Part shown: positions 542-40,565 of the stretch, in pieces | Position numbering within the stretch: position 1 is the stretch's first letter | Layout of the letters: each line of letters starts with the position of its first letter | Virus record (IMG/VR): IMGVR_UViG_2687453529_000006 | Origin: a virus | Lineage: Duplodnaviria > Heunggongvirae > Uroviricota > Caudoviricetes | DNA: 40,565 nucleotides | Strand: one strand, 5' to 3' | The notes under the pieces: generated by a model | The model's input: only the letters and a program-made list of their open reading frames with translations | Databases searched by the model: none | What the model was told of the DNA's origin: nothing | Translations under genes and position numbers: made by a program

Positions 542-1579
542 TTAACGCTTATCCGCCACCAGTTTGAGCGCGTGTTCCAGCACATTAATGTCTGCACCCG
601 CTTTATGGGCATTTTCACTTAAATAACGCCGCCACTGCCGCGCGCCAGGAATACCCTGGAACAAGCCCAACATATGCCGGGTAATATGGCCAAGATACGT
701 CCCCTGGCTGAGTTCACGCTCAATGTACGGATACATGGCGCGCACTACCGCCACCGGATCGGCATCGGTATCCGAGGAACCAAAGATCTCTCGGTCTACC
801 GCCGCCAGAATACCCGGATTTTGATACGCTTCGCGCCCGACCATCACGCCATCCATATGTTGCAAATGCGCTTTAGCCTCTTCCAGCGACTTGATACCAC
901 CGTTAATCGACATTGTCAGATGCGGAAAGTCACGCTTCAGTTGATACACACGCGGATAATCGAGCGGCGGGATTTCACGGTTTTCTTTCGGGCTTAACCC
1001 CGAAAGCCAGGCTTTACGAGCATGGATGATGAACATCTCACACTCGCCTTTGCCGGAAACGGTGTTGATGAAATCGCAGAGAAATTCATAGCTGTCCTGG
1101 TCGTCGATGCCAATACGCGTTTTCACCGTCACCGGAATCGACACCACATCGCGCATCGCTTTCACGCAGTCGGCAACCAGCTGCGCATTACCCATCAGAC
1201 ACGCCCCAAACATGCCGTTCTGCACCCGGTCAGACGGGCAGCCGACATTCAGGTTGATCTCATCATATCCGCGCGCTTCTGCCAGCTTTGCACACTGCGC
1301 CAGCGCCGCCGGATCGCTACCGCCCAGTTGCAATGCTACCGGATGTTCTTCTTCACTGTACGCCAGATAATCACCTTTACCGTGAATAATCGCCCCTGTG
1401 GTCACCATTTCGGTATACAGCAACGTATTGCGGGAAAGCAGACGCAAGAAATAGCGGCAATGTCTGTCCGTCCAGTCGAGCATAGGAGCAATGCTAAACC
1501 GAGAATTCCAGTAAACACCATTTTTTTCAGGCATCACGCTGGTTTGATTAATTTTTTGTGTTTCATGATTATCGTGCAT
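542..1579 (-). CDS. dusA: tRNA-dihydrouridine synthase A
   Basis: 345-aa translation with the Dus TIM-barrel signature and near-identity to E. coli DusA over most of its length as remembered; the N-terminal ~30 aa appear divergent. Confidence 0.93.
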
Positions 1580-1582
1580 TTT

Positions 1583-1660
1583 TGAACATTTCAGGCTATT
1601 TTTCTCGCGTTAGGTTCCCGCACAGGTTCCCACGTTTTATGGGAACCCGAAATAACGAGG
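1583..1660. other. dusA/integrase junction with GGTTCCC direct and GGGAACC inverted repeats; candidate attL flank or integrase-binding/regulatory site
   Basis: aggttcccgcacaggttcccacgttttatgggaacc lies between the dusA start and the int start. Confidence 0.35.
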
Positions 1661-1667
1661 TCGTGTA

Positions 1668-2765
1668 ATGGCGTACTATAACATAGAGAAACGACTAAAA
1701 TCCGATGGCACACCACGCTATCGCTGTAATGTGATTATCAAAGAAAAAGGGGTTATCACTTACAGGGAAAGCAAAACATTCCCTAAACATGCTCATGCCA
1801 AAACATGGGGCACACAGAAAGTGATGGAATTAGATCTACATGGCATTCCATCATCAAATGCTGTTGACGGGCTTACAGTCCGTGACTTACTACGCAAATA
1901 TTTAAATGACCCAAATGCCGGAGGTAAAGCAGGCCGTACTAAAAGATATGTGCTGGAACTACTTATGGATAGTGACATTTCTGCGATCAGACTATCTGAA
2001 TTAACAGAAAATGACGTAATAGAACATTGCAGGTTGAGAAACAACGCCGGTGCAGGTCCAGCTACTGTTAGCCACGATGTTAGTTATCTTGGCAGTGTTC
2101 TGGATGCAGCCAAACCTGTATACGGAATTAATTACACATCAAACCCAGCAAAAGCCGCTCGTCCATATCTACTTAAACTTGGTTTAATTGGTAAATCAAA
2201 TCGTCGTAATCGTAGACCAGCATCTGATGAACTAGACATGCTCATTGAAGGCCTTCAACAACGATCTACTCATAAATGCTCAAAAATTCCGTTCGTTGAT
2301 ATCCTCAAATTTTCTGTGTGGTCCTGTATGCGAATCGGAGAAGTATGCCGGTTACGATGGGAAGATCTCGACCAGGAACAAAAATCTATACTAGTAAGAG
2401 ACAGGAAAGATCCACGTAAAAAGGAAGGTAACCATATGAAAGTGGCCTTGCTTGGGGAAGCCTGGGATATCGTCCAACGACAACCCAAAAAATCTGAATT
2501 CATTTTTCCATACAACAGCACTTCTGTTACCGCAGGATTTCAGAGGGTAAGAAGCAAATTAGGTATTAAAGATCTGCGATACCATGATTTGCGTAGAGAA
2601 GGGGCAAGTCGCTTATTTGAGGCTGGTTTTAGTATTGAGGAAGTCGCCCAGGTTACAGGGCATCGTTCATTAAACGTGCTATGGCAGGTATATACCGAAC
2701 TGTATCCAAAATCTTTACATAATCGTTTTGAAGAACTCCAAAGGAGCAGAAATAAGACCTCTTGA
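1668..2765 (+). CDS. int: Tyrosine-type site-specific integrase (dusA-associated integrase family)
   Basis: 365 aa; C-terminal catalytic region with R..HDLRR..Y-type motifs (RIGEV..., HDLRREGAS..., YTELY); GAGG RBS; positioned directly at the dusA 5' end. Confidence 0.9.
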   Translation: MAYYNIEKRLKSDGTPRYRCNVIIKEKGVITYRESKTFPKHAHAKTWGTQKVMELDLHGIPSSNAVDGLTVRDLLRKYLNDPNAGGKAGRTKRYVLELLMDSDISAIRLSELTENDVIEHCRLRNNAGAGPATVSHDVSYLGSVLDAAKPVYGINYTSNPAKAARPYLLKLGLIGKSNRRNRRPASDELDMLIEGLQQRSTHKCSKIPFVDILKFSVWSCMRIGEVCRLRWEDLDQEQKSILVRDRKDPRKKEGNHMKVALLGEAWDIVQRQPKKSEFIFPYNSTSVTAGFQRVRSKLGIKDLRYHDLRREGASRLFEAGFSIEEVAQVTGHRSLNVLWQVYTELYPKSLHNRFEELQRSRNKTS

Positions 2766-4197: not shown

Positions 4198-4479
4198 TCA
4201 CATCCAGCCACGAAGTTGATGCTCAACAACAATCGCGTATTTATCGAATATTGACGATTTTTTTGCATCATTAATGATGCGCACGTTTACAAAATATCCG
4301 TCTTCCTTAACACATACCGGTTCGCCATCTTCAGTCAGTTCTCCGCTTTCTTTGTACACGTTACCTATCACGTCAATAAGAATATCATCCTGCATCGACT
4401 CGTCATCATAATAGCCAATACTCTCCATAAAGGCCGAAAAGTCGGCCCTGTCTGCAAATTTGAGTGTTAAATCTTTCAT
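4198..4479 (-). CDS. Hypothetical protein between the two fibre genes
   Basis: 93-aa acidic ORF; 4-nt overlap with stf stop region; no family recognised (does not resemble lambda Tfa). Confidence 0.45.
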   Translation of the reverse strand: MKDLTLKFADRADFSAFMESIGYYDDESMQDDILIDVIGNVYKESGELTEDGEPVCVKEDGYFVNVRIINDAKKSSIFDKYAIVVEHQLRGWM

Positions 4480-30578: not shown

Positions 30579-31388
30579 TCAATGAACGGTATCGAGCAGC
30601 TTTAACAGCTCAGGGAATCGGGATTCGAAGAAATGCGGCTGCGTCTCGCGCGGATTTGCGGGACTGGTGATGTTCTTGCCGAACATGCAACCTTTCGCTG
30701 TCAGCGACCAGAATTTTTTGATGTTGTTAATCGCGGTACGGCTGTATCGTTCGCGCTGCTCGACGATCCCCAGTTTCACCATCTGGTGATATGCCTGATT
30801 AGCCGTCAGGCGTATACCATACTGTTTCAGCAGTGCACTCAGTGACAGTGTCGGGCGACTTGAGCCATCGTGTGCATCAGCAGGAGCATCAATGGCATAG
30901 CGCGGTGCCAGATTCGGTAAGCCAACAGCCTCCTGGAGTTTCTGACAGGCACCAAGCACTGAAGAGTTAGACAGGTTTAATTCCCGGCGCATAAAGTCCA
31001 GCAGAATCACACCAGCCTGCATCTTGTCAGCAGCCTGTCCGGATAATTTTTCCGGTGCGCTGGTTACCATGTCGAAAGTACGGATCACCTTCAGATGGAA
31101 TGACGGGCTGATCCACATTGCATAGGCATACACCAGTTCCTTGCAGACATACGTTCCCCGTTCATTTCCCCCATGAATCACACTCACCGGGTCAACACCC
31201 AAATTCTGGGTGTTGGTCAATTCATGAATAAGCTCAACAGTTTGTTGGCTGGAAAGAAACTTTCCTGGCTCCTTGGTTCTGGCATTTGCACCAGATGCTA
31301 CTGCTGCGCGATGCAGATCGTTCAGGCTGTAACGCCCATAAGCATCACGACGAACTTCAATACCATCAATGACCATCAGATTATTCAT
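30579..31388 (-). CDS. KilA-N domain protein (antirepressor-like)
   Basis: 269 aa; N-terminal region resembles the KilA-N domain. Confidence 0.7.
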   Translation of the reverse strand: MNNLMVIDGIEVRRDAYGRYSLNDLHRAAVASGANARTKEPGKFLSSQQTVELIHELTNTQNLGVDPVSVIHGGNERGTYVCKELVYAYAMWISPSFHLKVIRTFDMVTSAPEKLSGQAADKMQAGVILLDFMRRELNLSNSSVLGACQKLQEAVGLPNLAPRYAIDAPADAHDGSSRPTLSLSALLKQYGIRLTANQAYHQMVKLGIVEQRERYSRTAINNIKKFWSLTAKGCMFGKNITSPANPRETQPHFFESRFPELLKLLDTVH

Positions 31389-31407
31389 ACTTCGTTTCTC
31401 CTCTTAA

Positions 31408-31797
31408 TCAGGCGGCTGCACCCGCCGGTTTCTCATACTTACTGATAGTGATCTCGACCTTCCCTTTCGGGATAACCGGTCCCCACTCCACCAGCATTCT
31501 TTTCACCTGTCTGTCGTCTTCCCACACACCCGCGTGGGTCAGGGCGTCAAACAGAGCCTTGTTATAGTTGTCCAGATCGCGGATCCGGTTATCCGGAGGA
31601 AACAACACGATCTCCACTGAAGCAGGTGCCGACGTTGGTTTCGGCAGACGACGTAACTGCTCAACTATTGCTGCGCACGCCGCGCTCTGAAATTTTCGCC
31701 CCGCCTCGCTTATCAGGCTCTTACCAGCAAATGCCCCTTTGTTGGGGTGTCGCCAGTACGTGTTCACACTGGGCGGGAAAGGAAGGATCAACTTCAT
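31408..31797 (-). CDS. rusA: Holliday junction resolvase RusA
   Basis: 129 aa; ...RDLDNYNKALFDALTHAGVWEDDRQV... matches the RusA family signature. Confidence 0.85.
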   Translation of the reverse strand: MKLILPFPPSVNTYWRHPNKGAFAGKSLISEAGRKFQSAACAAIVEQLRRLPKPTSAPASVEIVLFPPDNRIRDLDNYNKALFDALTHAGVWEDDRQVKRMLVEWGPVIPKGKVEITISKYEKPAGAAA

Positions 31798-35342: not shown

Positions 35343-35343
35343 A

Positions 35344-35417
35344 CAATATGTACCTCCGATGTACATATTACATGATTAAAATGAACCTTCAAGATACTTG
35401 TACCTTAACGGTACAAG
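35344..35417. promoter_or_regulatory. Immunity-region operators and divergent promoters
   Basis: Perfect palindromes AATATGTAC-ctccgat-GTACATATT and CTTGTACC-ttaac-GGTACAAG; minus-strand TTGAAG-16-TAATAT promoter for cro; weak -35/-10 for cI. Confidence 0.6.
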
Positions 35418-35432
35418 GGTTTTAATTTCATT

Positions 35433-36107
35433 ATGAAAACAGTCCATGACATCCGGCGGTCTAACGCCAGAAAACTGAGAGATGGTGTTGGCGGGAATTC
35501 TTCCTTTGCCACCATGATTGATCGCGAGCCGACCCAGACCAGCAGGTTTATGGGAGATGGTGCAACTAAAAATATCGGTGACAGCATGGCACGGCACATC
35601 GAAAAATGTTTCGACCTGCCTGTCGGATGGCTTGATCAAGAACACCAGACAACGAACATCACAAAAAAACCTGATGTTTCAATCACTAACAAACAAATAA
35701 CGTTAGTCCCTGTCATATCATGGGTACAGGCCGGAGCATGGAAAGAAGTTGGTTATTCTGAGGTTGATTTGAGCACAGCAGAAACTTATCCCTGCCCTGT
35801 ACCCTGTGGTGAAATGACTTATATCTTGCGGGTGATTGGTGATTCAATGATTGATGAGTACCGCCCAGGAGACATGATTTTTGTTGATCCTGAAGTCCCT
35901 GCCTGCCACGGTGACGACGTTATTGCATTGATGCACGATACAGGCGAAACCACCTTCAAGCGGTTGATAGAAGATGGAACACAGCGTTACCTCAAAGCAT
36001 TAAACCCAAACTGGCCTGAACCTTACATTAAGATCAACGGTAATTGCTCTATAATTGGTACAGTGATTTTCTCGGGAAAACCAAGAAGATACAAAATAAA
36101 GACCTAA
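35433..36107 (+). CDS. cI: CI-like repressor (HTH plus S24 LexA-like peptidase domain)
   Basis: 224 aa; C-terminal ...LRVIGDSMIDEYRPGDMIFVDPE... with Ser and Lys of S24 autocleavage domain. Confidence 0.9.
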   Translation: MKTVHDIRRSNARKLRDGVGGNSSFATMIDREPTQTSRFMGDGATKNIGDSMARHIEKCFDLPVGWLDQEHQTTNITKKPDVSITNKQITLVPVISWVQAGAWKEVGYSEVDLSTAETYPCPVPCGEMTYILRVIGDSMIDEYRPGDMIFVDPEVPACHGDDVIALMHDTGETTFKRLIEDGTQRYLKALNPNWPEPYIKINGNCSIIGTVIFSGKPRRYKIKT

Positions 36108-36117
36108 TCAATATTTA

Positions 36118-36142
36118 TGAACCTGCTTCGGCAGGTTTTTTT
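36118..36142 (+). terminator. Intrinsic terminator after cI
   Basis: cctgc-ttcg-gcagg followed by TTTTTTT. Confidence 0.65.
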
Positions 36143-36146
36143 ATAC

Positions 36147-36180
36147 TTGACAATGTACCTTTGGGATACATAATGTATCC
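36147..36180 (+). promoter_or_regulatory. Sigma-70 promoter with overlapping 17-bp palindromic operator
   Basis: TTGACA, 16-nt spacer, CATAAT; perfect palindrome GGATACAT-A-ATGTATCC covers the -10. Confidence 0.55.
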
Positions 36181-36569
36181 AAAAGAAACATGCAACAGGC
36201 AAGATTCAAACAAAGTTTGGTTGTAACACGGCGTATGGCACATGCGTCGTTAGCGGTCTGGAGACGTTAAAGGGGACAATCCACTCCTTGCTCGGGCAAA
36301 CAAACCAGGTAGCCGGAATGTGCAAGTCAATGATGATGCTGATAAGACGCCTAACCAGCGTGGCGATTCGGTTTGACGCCTGGGAAGAGACCAGGGTGCA
36401 ACGATAAGAGCATTTATGGAGCCGAGACAAAGTGTGGCGCCGAACTGGCTAAGTGCTCTCAGCGTTGTGGTAATCCGCGAAATGGCGCGGCGGTAAGTAT
36501 GGCGGGGTTACTCTTTCCCCGTTGAGGACACCGGATTGTCAGGTTGACCATACGCCTGAGTGACAACCC

Positions 36570-36638
36570 CACCACAACAGCCACTGCTTTGGCGGTACCA
36601 GTTTGTACACTTGCTTCCGGCTGGTACCGCTCTTTTTA
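36570..36638 (+). ncRNA. Candidate DicF-like small RNA / terminator at the end of a long structured leader
   Basis: ctttGGCGGTACCAGTTTgtac...CTGGTACCGCtcTTTTT: stable hairpin with U-run; the 5' arm resembles the DicF 5' region as I recall it. Confidence 0.4.
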
Positions 36639-36774
36639 CAAAACAGAGAAGAGCATCACCGGACGACGGGCTCATAACCCAATCCATCCGGGCAGCAGCC
36701 ACTGCAGGTGTTCTTCTCTGTTTTGTGGAGAAACTAACCGACCTTGCAGGGTCGATATGATGAGGAGCAGCAAA

Positions 36775-37137
36775 ATGGCTAGCGAACGCAGTACTGATGT
36801 GCAGGCATTTATCGGGGAGCTGGACGGCGGCGTATTTGAAACCAAAATCGGCGCAGTTCTCAGTGAAGTCGCTTCCGGTGTGATGAACACGAAAACCAAA
36901 GGTAAGGTCTCGCTCAACCTGGAAATCGAACCGTTTGATGAGAACCGTGTGAAAATCAAACACAAACTCTCATATGTTCGCCCAACTAACCGCGGGAAAA
37001 TTTCCGAAGAAGACACCACCGAAACGCCGATGTATGTCAATCGCGGTGGTCGCCTGACTGTTCTGCAGGAAGACCAGGGACAATTACTGACTCTTGCCGG
37101 TGAACCTGACGGAAAACTCCGCGCAGCAGGTCATTAA
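36775..37137 (+). CDS. YfdP-like prophage protein
   Basis: 120 aa from MASERSTDVQAFIGELDGGVF...; GAGGAG RBS; family name from memory. Confidence 0.6.
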   Translation: MASERSTDVQAFIGELDGGVFETKIGAVLSEVASGVMNTKTKGKVSLNLEIEPFDENRVKIKHKLSYVRPTNRGKISEEDTTETPMYVNRGGRLTVLQEDQGQLLTLAGEPDGKLRAAGH

Positions 37138-38027: not shown

Positions 38028-38037
38028 TTTCATTACT

Positions 38038-38064
38038 GCAAATGCCCCTGCGGGGGCATTTACG
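38038..38064 (+). terminator. Putative terminator after yfdQ-like gene
   Basis: aaatgcccc-tgcg-ggggcattt hairpin; weak T-run. Confidence 0.35.
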
Positions 38065-38148
38065 GAAGCGATAATTTTAACTATTGCCGCCCCTATAAAG
38101 AACCATTAAACAATAACGTGACGTAGCTATTGATAGTAAATGAAGCAC

Positions 38149-38181
38149 TTGCAAAATAATTGCATTGCGTATATATACGCA
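38149..38181 (+). promoter_or_regulatory. Promoter with 16-bp perfect palindrome upstream of the AT-rich membrane-protein gene
   Basis: TTGCAA, 17-nt spacer, TATATA; palindrome TGCGTATATATACGCA spans the -10. Confidence 0.5.
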
Positions 38182-38203
38182 CATGTGTTGTATTACAGCG
38201 ATA

Positions 38204-38998
38204 ATGGTAAAGCAAATGATTAACTCTGAAGCAATTGAGCAACTAATGTGGCTATGGTCCTTATTTGACATTAAATTCTTATCTATTCTTGCCGCTGCCT
38301 TCACTATATATTTTGGCGTGCAAAAAATATCAAAAAAGGTGACAGTGTCGTATTCGACAGATGTAAGTAGAATATATGACATGCATATATCAACCATAAT
38401 CCTGAATAATAAAAGAGATAATGCAATTGCTATATCTTCAATCAATATGGAGGTTGAAGGTAAAGGGATACTACAAGTTATTAAATTTGACTCCCCTCTT
38501 CTTTTAAAGAACTATGATTCTTTAAAAGTTGAACCACCAAAATTTAGCAGCCTTTATAATAATGATGGCGTAGTTAAGTTAGATATTTCTGATAAGTTTC
38601 ATTTTTATATAATCACGACATCTGGAGATGAAATTAAATGTATTTCTGAAAATAAATATGTGGCACCAAACATGGAAAACAAAATAGCTACAGACATAAG
38701 AAAATTTAATGGCATTGTCTTAACAAACAGAATGTCTTATATTTTTTTCTATGCAAATGACAACGGAGAGAAATACTGCATAATAGATGTTTCATTGTTC
38801 ATAAATGGTGACAACCCATTTCATTTTAATTTTTTAAAAGAAGATGAATTAAGAGATTTTTCTAGCATCCTTATTGGTTACGGATATCACCAACGGTTTA
38901 AAAGTTATGCATTGTTTAAAATAGACAACCATCTTGCTCCTTCTTTGGTTTTAAATAAGTCAATGATAGAAAATAATATTATTGAAATGAATAAGTAA
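38204..38998 (+). CDS. Unrecognised low-GC membrane-anchored protein (about 265 aa)
   Basis: Long ORF in a markedly AT-rich block; one N-terminal hydrophobic helix (…FLSILAAAFTIYFGV…); start codon uncertain (track ORF begins at 38165 with TTG). Confidence 0.6.
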   Translation: MVKQMINSEAIEQLMWLWSLFDIKFLSILAAAFTIYFGVQKISKKVTVSYSTDVSRIYDMHISTIILNNKRDNAIAISSINMEVEGKGILQVIKFDSPLLLKNYDSLKVEPPKFSSLYNNDGVVKLDISDKFHFYIITTSGDEIKCISENKYVAPNMENKIATDIRKFNGIVLTNRMSYIFFYANDNGEKYCIIDVSLFINGDNPFHFNFLKEDELRDFSSILIGYGYHQRFKSYALFKIDNHLAPSLVLNKSMIENNIIEMNK

Positions 38999-39034
38999 CT
39001 CACCGGGTGCAGCCGGTTATGATGGAGAAATGAT

Positions 39035-39316
39035 ATGAATACCTTGTTTTTACTGATGGCTGAATTCAATACCCCAAACATTGAACTCTCAGCAGTTAGT
39101 CAAAAATACTTTGGTATGAGTCCAGCCACAGCAGAAGCAAAAGCAAACGCTTGTAAGTTGCCCGTTCCAACATATCGCATCGGCACATCACAAAAAGCAA
39201 AACGTTGCATCAATATTCAGGATCTTGCGGAATATATAGACAAAAGACGAGAAGAAGGACGTATCGAGTGGGAACAGGTCAGAACAGGCAAACAGAAGGG
39301 CAAAGAACATCACTAA
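39035..39316 (+). CDS. PrtN-like small DNA-binding regulator (pyocin-activator/excisionase-like)
   Basis: 93 aa; MNTLFLLMAEF...KLPVPTYRIG... resembles PrtN family as remembered. Confidence 0.7.
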   Translation: MNTLFLLMAEFNTPNIELSAVSQKYFGMSPATAEAKANACKLPVPTYRIGTSQKAKRCINIQDLAEYIDKRREEGRIEWEQVRTGKQKGKEHH

Positions 39317-39317
39317 A

Positions 39318-39350
39318 GAAAAAACCCGCCTAAAGGCGGGTTTTCAAAAA
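39318..39350. terminator. Bidirectional intrinsic terminator
   Basis: acccgcc-taaa-ggcgggt flanked by A-run and T-run; sits between convergent genes. Confidence 0.6.
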
Positions 39351-39363
39351 GCACCAGCTATGA

Positions 39364-39537
39364 TCATGCTGCTTTGCGACGACGAAGCTTACCCTGCTGC
39401 TCTTTACCAGAGACAATAGCGTGAGTGAACGCATTAGGAGCAGCCTTCATCAGAACTTCAGCAGCAGCCCCCATACCTGCGAATGCTTTCATTGTGTCGA
39501 ACTTAACCTGTGGCTTGGTTGCTTTTTGATCTTCCAT
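39364..39537 (-). CDS. Small basic protein (57 aa), last gene of the minus-strand accessory operon
   Basis: Below the ORF-track cutoff: MEDQKATKPQVKFDTMKAFAGMGAAAEVLMKAAPNAFTHAIVSGKEQQGKLRRRKAA; GGAG RBS; terminator immediately downstream. Confidence 0.45.
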   Translation of the reverse strand: MEDQKATKPQVKFDTMKAFAGMGAAAEVLMKAAPNAFTHAIVSGKEQQGKLRRRKAA

Positions 39538-39576
39538 AGAAAACTCCAGAAGCTATACCGAAAAAATTCCTGTTGT

Positions 39577-39996
39577 TTACTCATCATCAATAGATGATAC
39601 GCAATATTTATTTTTAAATTTAAGGTTCTTTGGCGTAACTTCATCAGATATATCAAAACCGTCCAGAATTCTATTGAATGTAGCTTCTGGCATATCATCA
39701 TGAACAGAAATCTCACCCGATCGCTGCTTTCTAACCATGTTATCCACTCGCCAAATTATAGCTTCAGCGTAAACAACATAACTTGGATGCTTGATAAAGC
39801 GATGATCACCAGAATTCAAGACGCAAGACGGATCGTGGGGGACACCATCCTTGATACTAGAAATATTAACAACTAAAACACAATAACAATCGTTAACGGG
39901 GTAATAAACAGGATCATTACAAATCACATGAAGATGATTGCATGGCCCAGTTGGGGCAAGCACAGTTCCTTTCCTGTATGGCTGATAATCCGTCAT
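39577..39996 (-). CDS. Unrecognised 139-aa protein translationally coupled to the PanA-like gene (candidate toxin/effector)
   Basis: Start overlaps upstream stop (ATGA); low GC; contains an R-x6-H stretch (RSGEISVH). Confidence 0.6.
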   Translation of the reverse strand: MTDYQPYRKGTVLAPTGPCNHLHVICNDPVYYPVNDCYCVLVVNISSIKDGVPHDPSCVLNSGDHRFIKHPSYVVYAEAIIWRVDNMVRKQRSGEISVHDDMPEATFNRILDGFDISDEVTPKNLKFKNKYCVSSIDDE

Positions 39997-40565
39997 GATA
40001 ATTGCAAAGAAAATTCCTTAAGTTTCTGAGATTCTTCCATTTTGCCAATTATACGATTAGCCTCATCCTCGCTTTTACCCTCACTGATCAGCATTTCTTT
40101 CAGGTCTATAGGCTTACGAGAATTGCCAGAATTATGCCACTCTGGACAAACGCTTTCTAAATGCGTCATGTTTGCGAGATCAAATCGGTTCATATGCCCA
40201 TACAGAGAATAGATTTCATCTAAAATCCGGATATCTGCACGGCTCAACTCATCAAAGACCTCGTCTGCATCCATTTCCCTCGGATCTGAACGCAACAACA
40301 CATCATGCCCGTTCGTCTCTATCAAGTTGTACCAGTAGTCACCAATGCCTTCAGCCTTACCACGAATCAAGTTCAGCGTATTCGACATGACTGGACCAAA
40401 TTTCATAGAGTAAAGACTATCTTCGCCGATCATCCTGCCATGCTTCAAAATCGACTTGCGGTTAGACAGATAGAGCAGCTTCATCAATTTCAGATATGCC
40501 ATGCGCCCACCTCGCTTAAGAAGTAGGTATGCAGCCATTTGAGCTACTTTTTCTTCGCAAAACAT
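39993..40565 (-). CDS. Panacea-domain (DUF4065, PanA/GepA-like) protein, N-terminus probably beyond the window
   Basis: ...AYLKLMKLLYLSNRKSILKHGRMIGEDSLYSMKFGPVMSNT... resembles the Panacea domain core as remembered; ORF reaches the window edge. Confidence 0.6.
   Translation of the reverse strand: MFCEEKVAQMAAYLLLKRGGRMAYLKLMKLLYLSNRKSILKHGRMIGEDSLYSMKFGPVMSNTLNLIRGKAEGIGDYWYNLIETNGHDVLLRSDPREMDADEVFDELSRADIRILDEIYSLYGHMNRFDLANMTHLESVCPEWHNSGNSRKPIDLKEMLISEGKSEDEANRIIGKMEESQKLKEFSLQLS

Follow-up and report, generated by a model that had tools for sequence, protein, structure and literature searches.

The 40,565-nucleotide DNA of the IMG/VR virus record IMGVR_UViG_2687453529_000006 (hereafter the window, meaning the whole stretch) carries a gene of 260 codons, encoding the protein WP_023908887.1, that belongs to an undescribed family moving among prophages, satellites, and plasmids. 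The window is a complete lambdoid prophage integrated at dusA, identical in sequence to a segment of the Escherichia coli Ecol_881 chromosome, and within it the gene makes up a horizontally acquired, moron-like cassette that was inserted by replacement into the early-left operon. The predicted product joins a single N-terminal membrane anchor to an immunoglobulin (Ig)-like beta-sandwich and a C-terminal domain, and the role that we tentatively prefer, as a possible one, is single-gene phage exclusion at the inner membrane. As a candidate, the gene is legitimate but ordinary, one of many prophage cargo genes that are uncharacterised. The coordinates of the features discussed below are collected in Table 1.

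Gene model, family, and predicted product

An earlier note on this DNA, prepared by a model from the letters and their translated open reading frames (ORFs), had described the gene as an ORF of 265 amino acids. The ORF is indeed intact on the + strand and ends at position 38998, but the length was wrong, as the protein starting from the ATG at 38216 has 260 amino acids. This start is backed by the PGAP call of WP_023908887.1, by the match to PHROG 14996, which spans residues 5-264 of the longer (265-amino-acid) version, and by the homologues that we aligned or translated, which begin with MIN or MLN. A 27-codon upstream ORF (38141-38224), which was read by eye and overlaps the start codon, was discarded, its frame being shifted by a 2-bp deletion in five variants. 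The gene was correctly described as AT-rich amid the prophage: its guanine + cytosine (GC) content is 29.4% compared with 50.2% for the window, with a trough at 38200-39000. Further, the ratio of nonsynonymous to synonymous substitution (dN/dS) was 0.12-0.42 for the pairs for which it could be estimated, the sole exception being the nearly identical pair of the window gene and its relative at locus L020 (dN 0.011, dS 0.013, ratio 0.85), and intact ORFs of 255-270 amino acids were found in E. coli, Citrobacter, Klebsiella, Raoultella, and Pantoea. Because these values and intact ORFs extend across genera, we conclude that the gene is functional.

The protein matches PHROG 14996, a family of unknown function with no exclusion annotation, at E = 7.4e-179 over profile positions 1-260 of 260, and an exhaustive profile search returned 221 clusters at 50% identity, mostly of 235-275 amino acids. 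The source records, from Escherichia, Citrobacter, Klebsiella, Raoultella, Pseudomonas, and Salinicola, name the family members only "hypothetical protein"; the copies in Acinetobacter and Pantoea were found by DNA searches. As the earlier note had supposed, the product lies outside known families. Neither the window protein nor any of 70 members gave a significant match to the hidden Markov models (HMMs) of Pfam, NCBIfam, or PADLOC, a search of PDB sequences with the family profile gave nothing significant, and the sole weak HMM match was to Ig_TMEM131L_3 (E = 0.012). A tblastn search of 50,697 phage records found no match, and nothing was found in the literature on the accession or on yfdQ-linked defence.

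AlphaFold2 (AF2) returned a confident model (predicted local distance difference test score 83.5, predicted template modelling score 0.70), in which helices at residues 4-14 and 21-38 are followed by a beta-rich region and then by an alpha/beta tail. The second of these helices is, by AF2 and by hydropathy, the single N-terminal transmembrane helix that had been proposed from the sequence alone, and one N-terminal hydrophobic segment is present across 128 family members. The helix has an acidic flank on its N-terminal side and a basic flank on its C-terminal side (K37, K40, and K41); likewise, across the family, lysine and arginine average 0.6 on the N-terminal side versus 2.4 on the C-terminal side. 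By the positive-inside rule, the soluble part probably faces the cytoplasm. The Ig-like beta-sandwich is most likely a protein-recognition module. The positions conserved family-wide are K37, N65, D68, P94, K98, S111, C142, Y179, G194, and N205. A structure search of BFVD gave no match to the model. We also considered the N-K-R-D string as the G4 motif of a GTPase; the protein has no P-loop and the string lies in a beta-sandwich fold, and the likeness was treated as coincidence.

The cassette and the early-left operon

The cassette extends from 38078 to about 39000 of the window, roughly 0.9 kb, and contains one gene. Homology to SfIV, mEp460, Kati, and Stx2c-type phages covers yfdQ and the GC-rich hairpin behind it and stops at about 38077, and the cassette takes the place of about 3.5 kb of early genes, yfdR through a 3'-5' exonuclease, that lie between yfdQ and xis. 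It was present in 99 of 5,426 complete E. coli genomes, always as a single chromosomal copy, intact and with the same flanks; 741 E. coli genomes have this type of excisionase. Six other prophages were inspected. In the five that have this excisionase type but do not carry the cassette, the genes before xis are yfdR (a 5'-deoxynucleotidase), small hypotheticals, a methyltransferase or ead/Ea22/DUF551, and the 3'-5' exonuclease, and the sixth itself bears the cassette. The idea that yfdQ-xis is a defence hotspot of E. coli was dropped, the alternative occupants in the inspected prophages being ordinary early-left genes. With regard to location, the gene does lie between yfdQ and the PrtN-family gene, as had been stated, but it is not immunity-proximal: it is the third gene of its operon, 2.1 kb downstream of the repressor. 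The broader description is supported in that the gene is foreign, accessory, and low in GC, with a membrane-anchored product that is unplaced.

The moron concept is reportedly that of Hendrix and colleagues, and morons occur in HK97 and lambda-type phages, for example lambda bor and lom and HK97 gp15. Like these, the gene is an extra one of distinct base composition, here in a mosaic lambdoid genome with HK97-type head genes. Unlike them, it stands in place of other DNA rather than between neighbours, as yfdQ and xis are not adjacent in the relatives, where yfdR, other genes, and the exonuclease separate them. It also differs from morons in having no terminator of its own, the first real terminator lying past xis. 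Its putative private promoter shows weak matches to the consensus.

The order of the early-left operon is yfdP, yfdQ (DUF2303), the studied gene, and the PrtN-family gene, and the near-consensus promoter just past the repressor terminator is read as the early-left promoter driving all four. Inverted repeats with a GTAC core, located at 35343-35421 and 36119-36190 of the window (ATATGTAC-N7-GTACATAT, CTTGTACC-N5-GGTACAAG, and GGATACAT-A-ATGTATCC), surround the divergent repressor/cro promoters and the promoter beyond the repressor terminator, and they probably serve the right and left early promoters as operators. The PrtN-family protein is probably the excisionase, and its mEp460 counterpart is annotated as such. 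The only canonical terminator near the studied gene is the bidirectional one that follows xis.

The gene had also been credited with a promoter, an operator, and terminators of its own. The AT-rich 5' region of the cassette, which is presumed to be regulatory, aligns with the region upstream of the homologue at the Citrobacter locus L006. The hexamers TTGCAA (38149-38154) and TATATA (38172-38177) are present with 17 nucleotides between them, as claimed, but as a putative promoter they are weak, matching 8 of the 12 consensus positions, and the putative -10 lacks the conserved T at position 6. A consensus promoter scan did not list the pair and reported a different site, matching at 9 of 12 positions, at 38130-38157; nor was there any excess of promoter-like sites in the region, which has 8 compared with 11.8 expected from shuffled sequence. 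The palindrome is likewise real, perfect over 16 bp and overlapping the -10, and the nominal chance of meeting one in the 138-bp upstream region is about 0.007 under a first-order Markov model, but the operator role given to it met with negative results on conservation, repetition, and similarity to repressor operators. The -35 and -10 are the same in all 15 closely related IMG/VR loci that were compared. Of these loci, 7 have a perfect palindrome, 3 have one with a G-to-A change, and 5 have lost 2 bp of its right arm, so that it is broken in 8 of the 15. In Citrobacter, where the gene is 64% identical and the upstream DNA homologous over about 150 bp, the hexamer is kept as TTGYAA, and both the palindrome and the -10 are missing. 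No second copy with up to 3 mismatches occurs within the window, and the palindrome does not resemble the GTAC-type operators of the phage repressor. We therefore rejected the operator reading and with it the description of the gene as operator-controlled. An Rfam search returned nothing relevant. The only other perfect 16-bp palindrome of the window, GCATCATTAATGATGC at 4265-4280, lies inside a - strand ORF of 93 amino acids among the tail-fibre genes.

The terminators drawn on both sides of the gene did not hold. The upstream hairpin, which has no U-tract, was not listed by the terminator scan. SfIV, mEp460, and Kati conserve it, and in these phages the operon runs on past it into yfdR; it is the last sequence common to phages of these types before homology ends near 38077. 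The downstream hairpin (39002-39017; -8.7 kcal/mol, z = -0.5, no U-tract) folds no better than shuffled sequence and belongs to a recurrent linker, in which a short GC stem around a G(G)TGCAG loop is followed, after about 6-10 nucleotides, by a GGAG ribosome-binding site and an ATG. This linker is found before xis in mEp460, before yfdR in SfIV, Kati, and mEp460, before a KilA-N gene at window position 31422 (-), and 3' of the homologues in Citrobacter and at loci L031-L033, despite different excisionase genes there. In both early operons, the accessory genes that follow copies of the linker differ, and in several unrelated phages and islands the cassette ends on its right at this linker. The linker may serve as a boundary for recombination or as a signal in translation or processing. 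Short conserved boundary sequences have been proposed at lambdoid mosaic junctions (Clark et al. 2001, as cited in a passage of PMC3029335), and the linker resembles what that passage describes, the equation of the two being our inference.

Relatives in other elements and the possible function

The GC content of the gene was below that of its locus in every locus measured, and the family occupies at least three different prophage slots. In the lambda-like prophages L031, L032, and L052, the order is a ParB-like gene, the homologue, an Exc-type xis, and int. In a Klebsiella prophage with a podovirus-type head-tail connector/nozzle, and in the lambdoid prophages of Raoultella and L068, the homologue follows the replication genes in the early-right operon, with a nin-like region beyond it. 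In two Pseudomonas P2-like prophages, the homologue adjoins the portal gene and is divergent from the late genes, 41-49 bp after a gene for a 455-amino-acid AAA_16/STAND-like ATPase; this position is the P2 gpA-gpQ defence hotspot of Rousset et al. 2022 (PMC9122126). Citrobacter relatives belong to a module comprising a 477-amino-acid protein, a tail-assembly-protein fragment (missing in one backbone), the gene, a 68-amino-acid protein, and an integrase, and this module sits in three island backbones, one with AlpA, ASH, and a D5-type primase and another with antirestriction, RadC, and CbtA/CbeA genes. The 477-amino-acid protein (L006-L008:6015-7448) has no Pfam or PADLOC match and accompanies the homologue and xis-int in all three backbones. 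In Pantoea agglomerans, the homologue has orphan CdiA-CT/CdiI modules on one side and a type II-A retron (reverse transcriptase (RT) E = 2e-106, NDT E = 9e-59) on the other. The island concerned, from strain NBRC 102470 (L065:6500-13000), comprises two orphan CdiA-CT fragments of RNase A-type toxins, CdiI, the homologue, and the retron with its RT and NDT effector. Two small Acinetobacter plasmids bear copies, one of them adjoining an HNH-domain protein and MazEF, and in Acinetobacter chinensis a 427-amino-acid HNH-domain protein precedes the homologue. The Salinicola homologue is beside a 2,481-amino-acid polyvalent protein of the type found in integrative and conjugative elements (ICEs). Because relatives recur among integrase-adjacent cargo, in a recognised hotspot, beside a retron and toxin modules, and on plasmids, a conflict-related role fits.

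These neighbourhoods also bear on whether the protein works with a partner. The Pseudomonas ATPase (AAA_16/NB-ARC/STAND-like) weakly matches the PADLOC candidate PDC-S59 (E = 1e-7), and it is possible that ATPase and homologue form a two-gene candidate defence system. Generalised, this would make the protein one half of a two-gene system, as its effector or adaptor; encoded alone in E. coli, it would be inactive or reliant on a partner elsewhere. The Pseudomonas arrangement, found twice, the constant company of the 477-amino-acid protein in Citrobacter, and the HNH-domain protein ahead of the A. chinensis copy are in its favour, but a candidate partner is lacking from most contexts in enterobacteria, purifying selection acts on the solo copies, and the upstream neighbours are unrelated to one another, none having a relative in the window. 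On the last observation we rejected a conserved two-gene system, and we consider the dependence of the protein on a partner very unlikely. As no partner gene is conserved, the protein acts alone, if it acts at all.

Except in the Pseudomonas P2-like prophages, the gene is co-oriented with the surrounding early operon in every prophage context examined, and thus an early lytic function is possible. The gene would then serve, for example, host takeover, counter-defence, or replication or recombination as an accessory expressed from the early promoters during induction or infection, to the benefit of the phage and not of the lysogen. This reading accords with the place of the gene within early operons (ahead of xis in the early-left one for E. 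coli, L031-33, and L052, and behind the replication genes in the early-right one for Klebsiella, Raoultella, and L068), with the substitution of the cassette for other early-left genes, and with the want of a convincing independent promoter or terminator. However, the family also occurs outside phage operons (on the small plasmids, in the Pantoea island beside the retron, and next to the ICE-type polyvalent protein), its Pseudomonas copy occupies the P2 hotspot divergent from the late genes, and the ratio of 99 E. coli carriers to 741 genomes with the excisionase type marks it as dispensable. Further, several loci have AT-rich 5' intergenic regions of about 180-480 bp, which is unusual for tightly packed operons. 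We regard an early lytic function as somewhat unlikely.

Another reading is that the gene is mobile cargo that has nothing to do with phage, being directed at the host or neutral; it could be a membrane-associated fitness or stress factor or a hitch-hiking passenger silenced by H-NS. Its strong AT-richness and internal promoter-like sites are typical of xenogeneic DNA, the Ig-like fold is a generic binding fold, no defence signature is present, and the distribution is rare and patchy. We nevertheless judge this reading unlikely, given purifying selection across deep divergence, an ORF that is intact in all 99 E. coli copies, and polar residues that are conserved family-wide (K37, N65, D68, K98, S111, C142, and Y179), and given that the recurrent neighbours are defence, toxin, and integrase modules, not metabolic genes.

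The earlier note had put the gene forward as a candidate for phage defence. That candidacy survives in part: the contexts of the relatives fit defence or exclusion, but no known defence family is matched. On induction, the gene is necessarily co-transcribed with the early-left operon, and it might also be expressed in the lysogen from its own weak promoter. If the protein does exclude phages, recognition of a phage or host protein would fall to the tethered Ig-like domain, after which either infection would be blocked or membrane function compromised (abortive infection (Abi)). The protein would thereby work as other membrane-anchored prophage exclusion proteins do, without being homologous to them.

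Several observations weigh against phage exclusion. First, the window protein matched no family at E <= 1 among the 5,027 defence-protein HMMs of PADLOC-DB v2.0.0, the PADLOC HMMs gave no match to the Pseudomonas, Acinetobacter, and Pantoea homologues, and the protein has no enzymatic or pore-forming signature. Second, the E. coli slot is occupied in other prophages by ordinary early-left genes and is no defence hotspot, and the co-orientation with early operons described above suits a lytic role. Third, expression in the lysogen is unsupported, the promoter being weak, the palindrome unconserved, and xis not shielded by a terminator. Finally, the predicted topology is based solely on hydropathy and the positive-inside rule, and the relatives' contexts number about a dozen and were chosen nonrandomly. 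It is, in our estimation, doubtful that the protein is the first of a new and widely mobile family whose members each exclude phages from a single gene while tethered to the membrane. Such a family, built of an anchor, a cytoplasmic Ig-like sensor, and a novel-fold domain, would range through the prophages, satellites, and plasmids of Gammaproteobacteria and sometimes be coupled to a STAND-like ATPase.

Exclusion genes are found in or beside lambdoid early and immunity operons, as are sieB of lambda and P22 and rexAB of lambda. The studied gene is like these in lying in the early-left operon, on the repressor side, and an exclusion role is to that extent plausible, but it differs in encoding a single anchor with a large soluble part and in being next to xis and not the repressor. 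No relation to sieB or rexAB was detected through PHROG 14996, which has no function assigned, or through PADLOC, which gave no match.

A predicted architecture of this kind recalls membrane-anchored single-gene Abi proteins of prophages, namely PdpSau (ORF016 of Staphylococcus phage 53) and the lactococcal AbiP (PMC10127798). Like them, the studied protein is within about 260-280 amino acids and is encoded by a single accessory gene, the genes in question being in unrelated prophages; a single transmembrane helix near the N terminus, with the larger domain in the cytoplasm, is predicted for it as well. It is not homologous to PdpSau, an hhalign comparison with the family profile giving a probability of 0.25%, and, whereas the C terminus of PdpSau and AbiP is described as OB-fold-like, nucleic acid-binding, and positively charged, the studied protein has a near-neutral Ig-like sandwich and an unplaced domain. 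Further, PdpSau is encoded after the lysis genes and the studied protein in an early operon. With the cargo of the P2 gpA-gpQ and P4 psu-int hotspots (PMC9122126), the family shares the location of its Pseudomonas relatives beside the portal gene and of its Citrobacter relatives next to an integrase; unlike that cargo, the copy in E. coli belongs to an early operon of a lambdoid prophage, the alternative contents of which are not defence systems, and no validated hotspot system in PADLOC was matched.

Should phage exclusion prove true, the gene would represent a compact one-gene system of unusual architecture (an anchor, an Ig-like domain, and an undescribed fold), would give a handle on some 220 unannotated clusters that current defence finders miss, and would exemplify lambdoid early-operon cargo that can be swapped at short conserved linker hairpins. 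Should it not, the gene is one more uncharacterised prophage gene. In either case, the gene model is corrected, a family with conserved residues is defined, and an unsupported account of operator and terminators is removed.

Other features of the prophage

After the integrase, the prophage continues with HK97-type head genes, lambda-type tail genes, and an e14/CPS-53-like immunity region, and the displaced 5' fragment of dusA is found just outside the right end of the window.

Table 1. Positions of the features discussed (window coordinates unless a locus is named)
Feature	Position	Strand	Remarks
dusA and integrase	542-2765		
Repressor, S24 peptidase-type, YmfK-like	35433-36107		
Terminator 3' of repressor	36119-36138		
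Near-consensus promoter (TTGACA, 16 nucleotides, CATAAT)	36147-36174		11/12 positions; flanked by GTAC-type palindromes
GC-rich hairpin just 3' of yfdQ stop	38036..38065	+	-18.9 kcal/mol, z = -3.4; no U-tract
AT-rich 5' region of foreign cassette, presumed regulatory	38078..38215	+	Homology to related phages ends at 38077
Putative sigma-70 promoter (TTGCAA, 17 nucleotides, TATATA)	38149..38177	+	Weak match
Perfect 16-bp palindrome TGCGTATATATACGCA	38166..38181	.	Overlaps putative -10
Studied coding sequence, 260 amino acids	38216..38998	+	WP_023908887.1; PHROG 14996, function unknown
N-terminal hydrophobic helix, predicted membrane anchor, residues 21-38	38276..38329	+	AF2; hydropathy 1.7-1.9
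Ig-like beta-sandwich, residues ~42-141	38339..38638	+	Family-wide motif N65-x-K/R-D68; P94, K98, S111
C-terminal alpha/beta domain, residues ~156-260	38681..38995	+	No PDB structural counterpart
Linker: hairpin ACCGG-GTGCAG-CCGGT, then GGAG ribosome-binding site of excisionase gene	39002..39027	+	Recurrent boundary motif
Linker copies in the window	39002-39034; ~31388-31430	+; -	
Linker copies at other loci	L003:4925; L004:4925 and 8355; L005:3308		
Further linker copies at other loci	L008:8790; L031:8790; L032:8790		
PrtN-family protein gene, last of early-left operon	39035..39316	+	Pfam PF11112, E = 3e-23; phrog_1300 excisionase, E = 1e-39
Bidirectional intrinsic terminator, operon end	39320..39345		-16.2 kcal/mol, z = -4.7
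ORF of 57 amino acids	within 39364-40565	-	
Gene of 138 amino acids, unknown family	39577-39996	-	Overlaps Panacea gene; PGAP version shorter (128 amino acids)
SocA/Panacea-domain antitoxin-like gene	39993-40565	-	
Pseudomonas ATPase-homologue loci	L014:6589-8759; L015:6584-8759		

Between the repressor terminator and yfdP is a stretch of about 670 bp (36107-36775) that is without PGAP annotation and relatively GC-rich (about 54%). In the equivalent region of SfIV, ORFs are annotated on both strands. The stretch could hold an antiterminator or nut-like elements.

Three - strand genes occupy the interval between the excisionase gene and the end of the prophage (39364-40565). The Panacea-domain gene and its 138-amino-acid partner look like a cargo module of the PanA toxin-antitoxin type. 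In other prophages, the same interval past xis contains a YafO toxin module or an unrelated hypothetical protein of 177 amino acids, and because its contents differ among prophages, it is a variable cargo slot at this prophage end.

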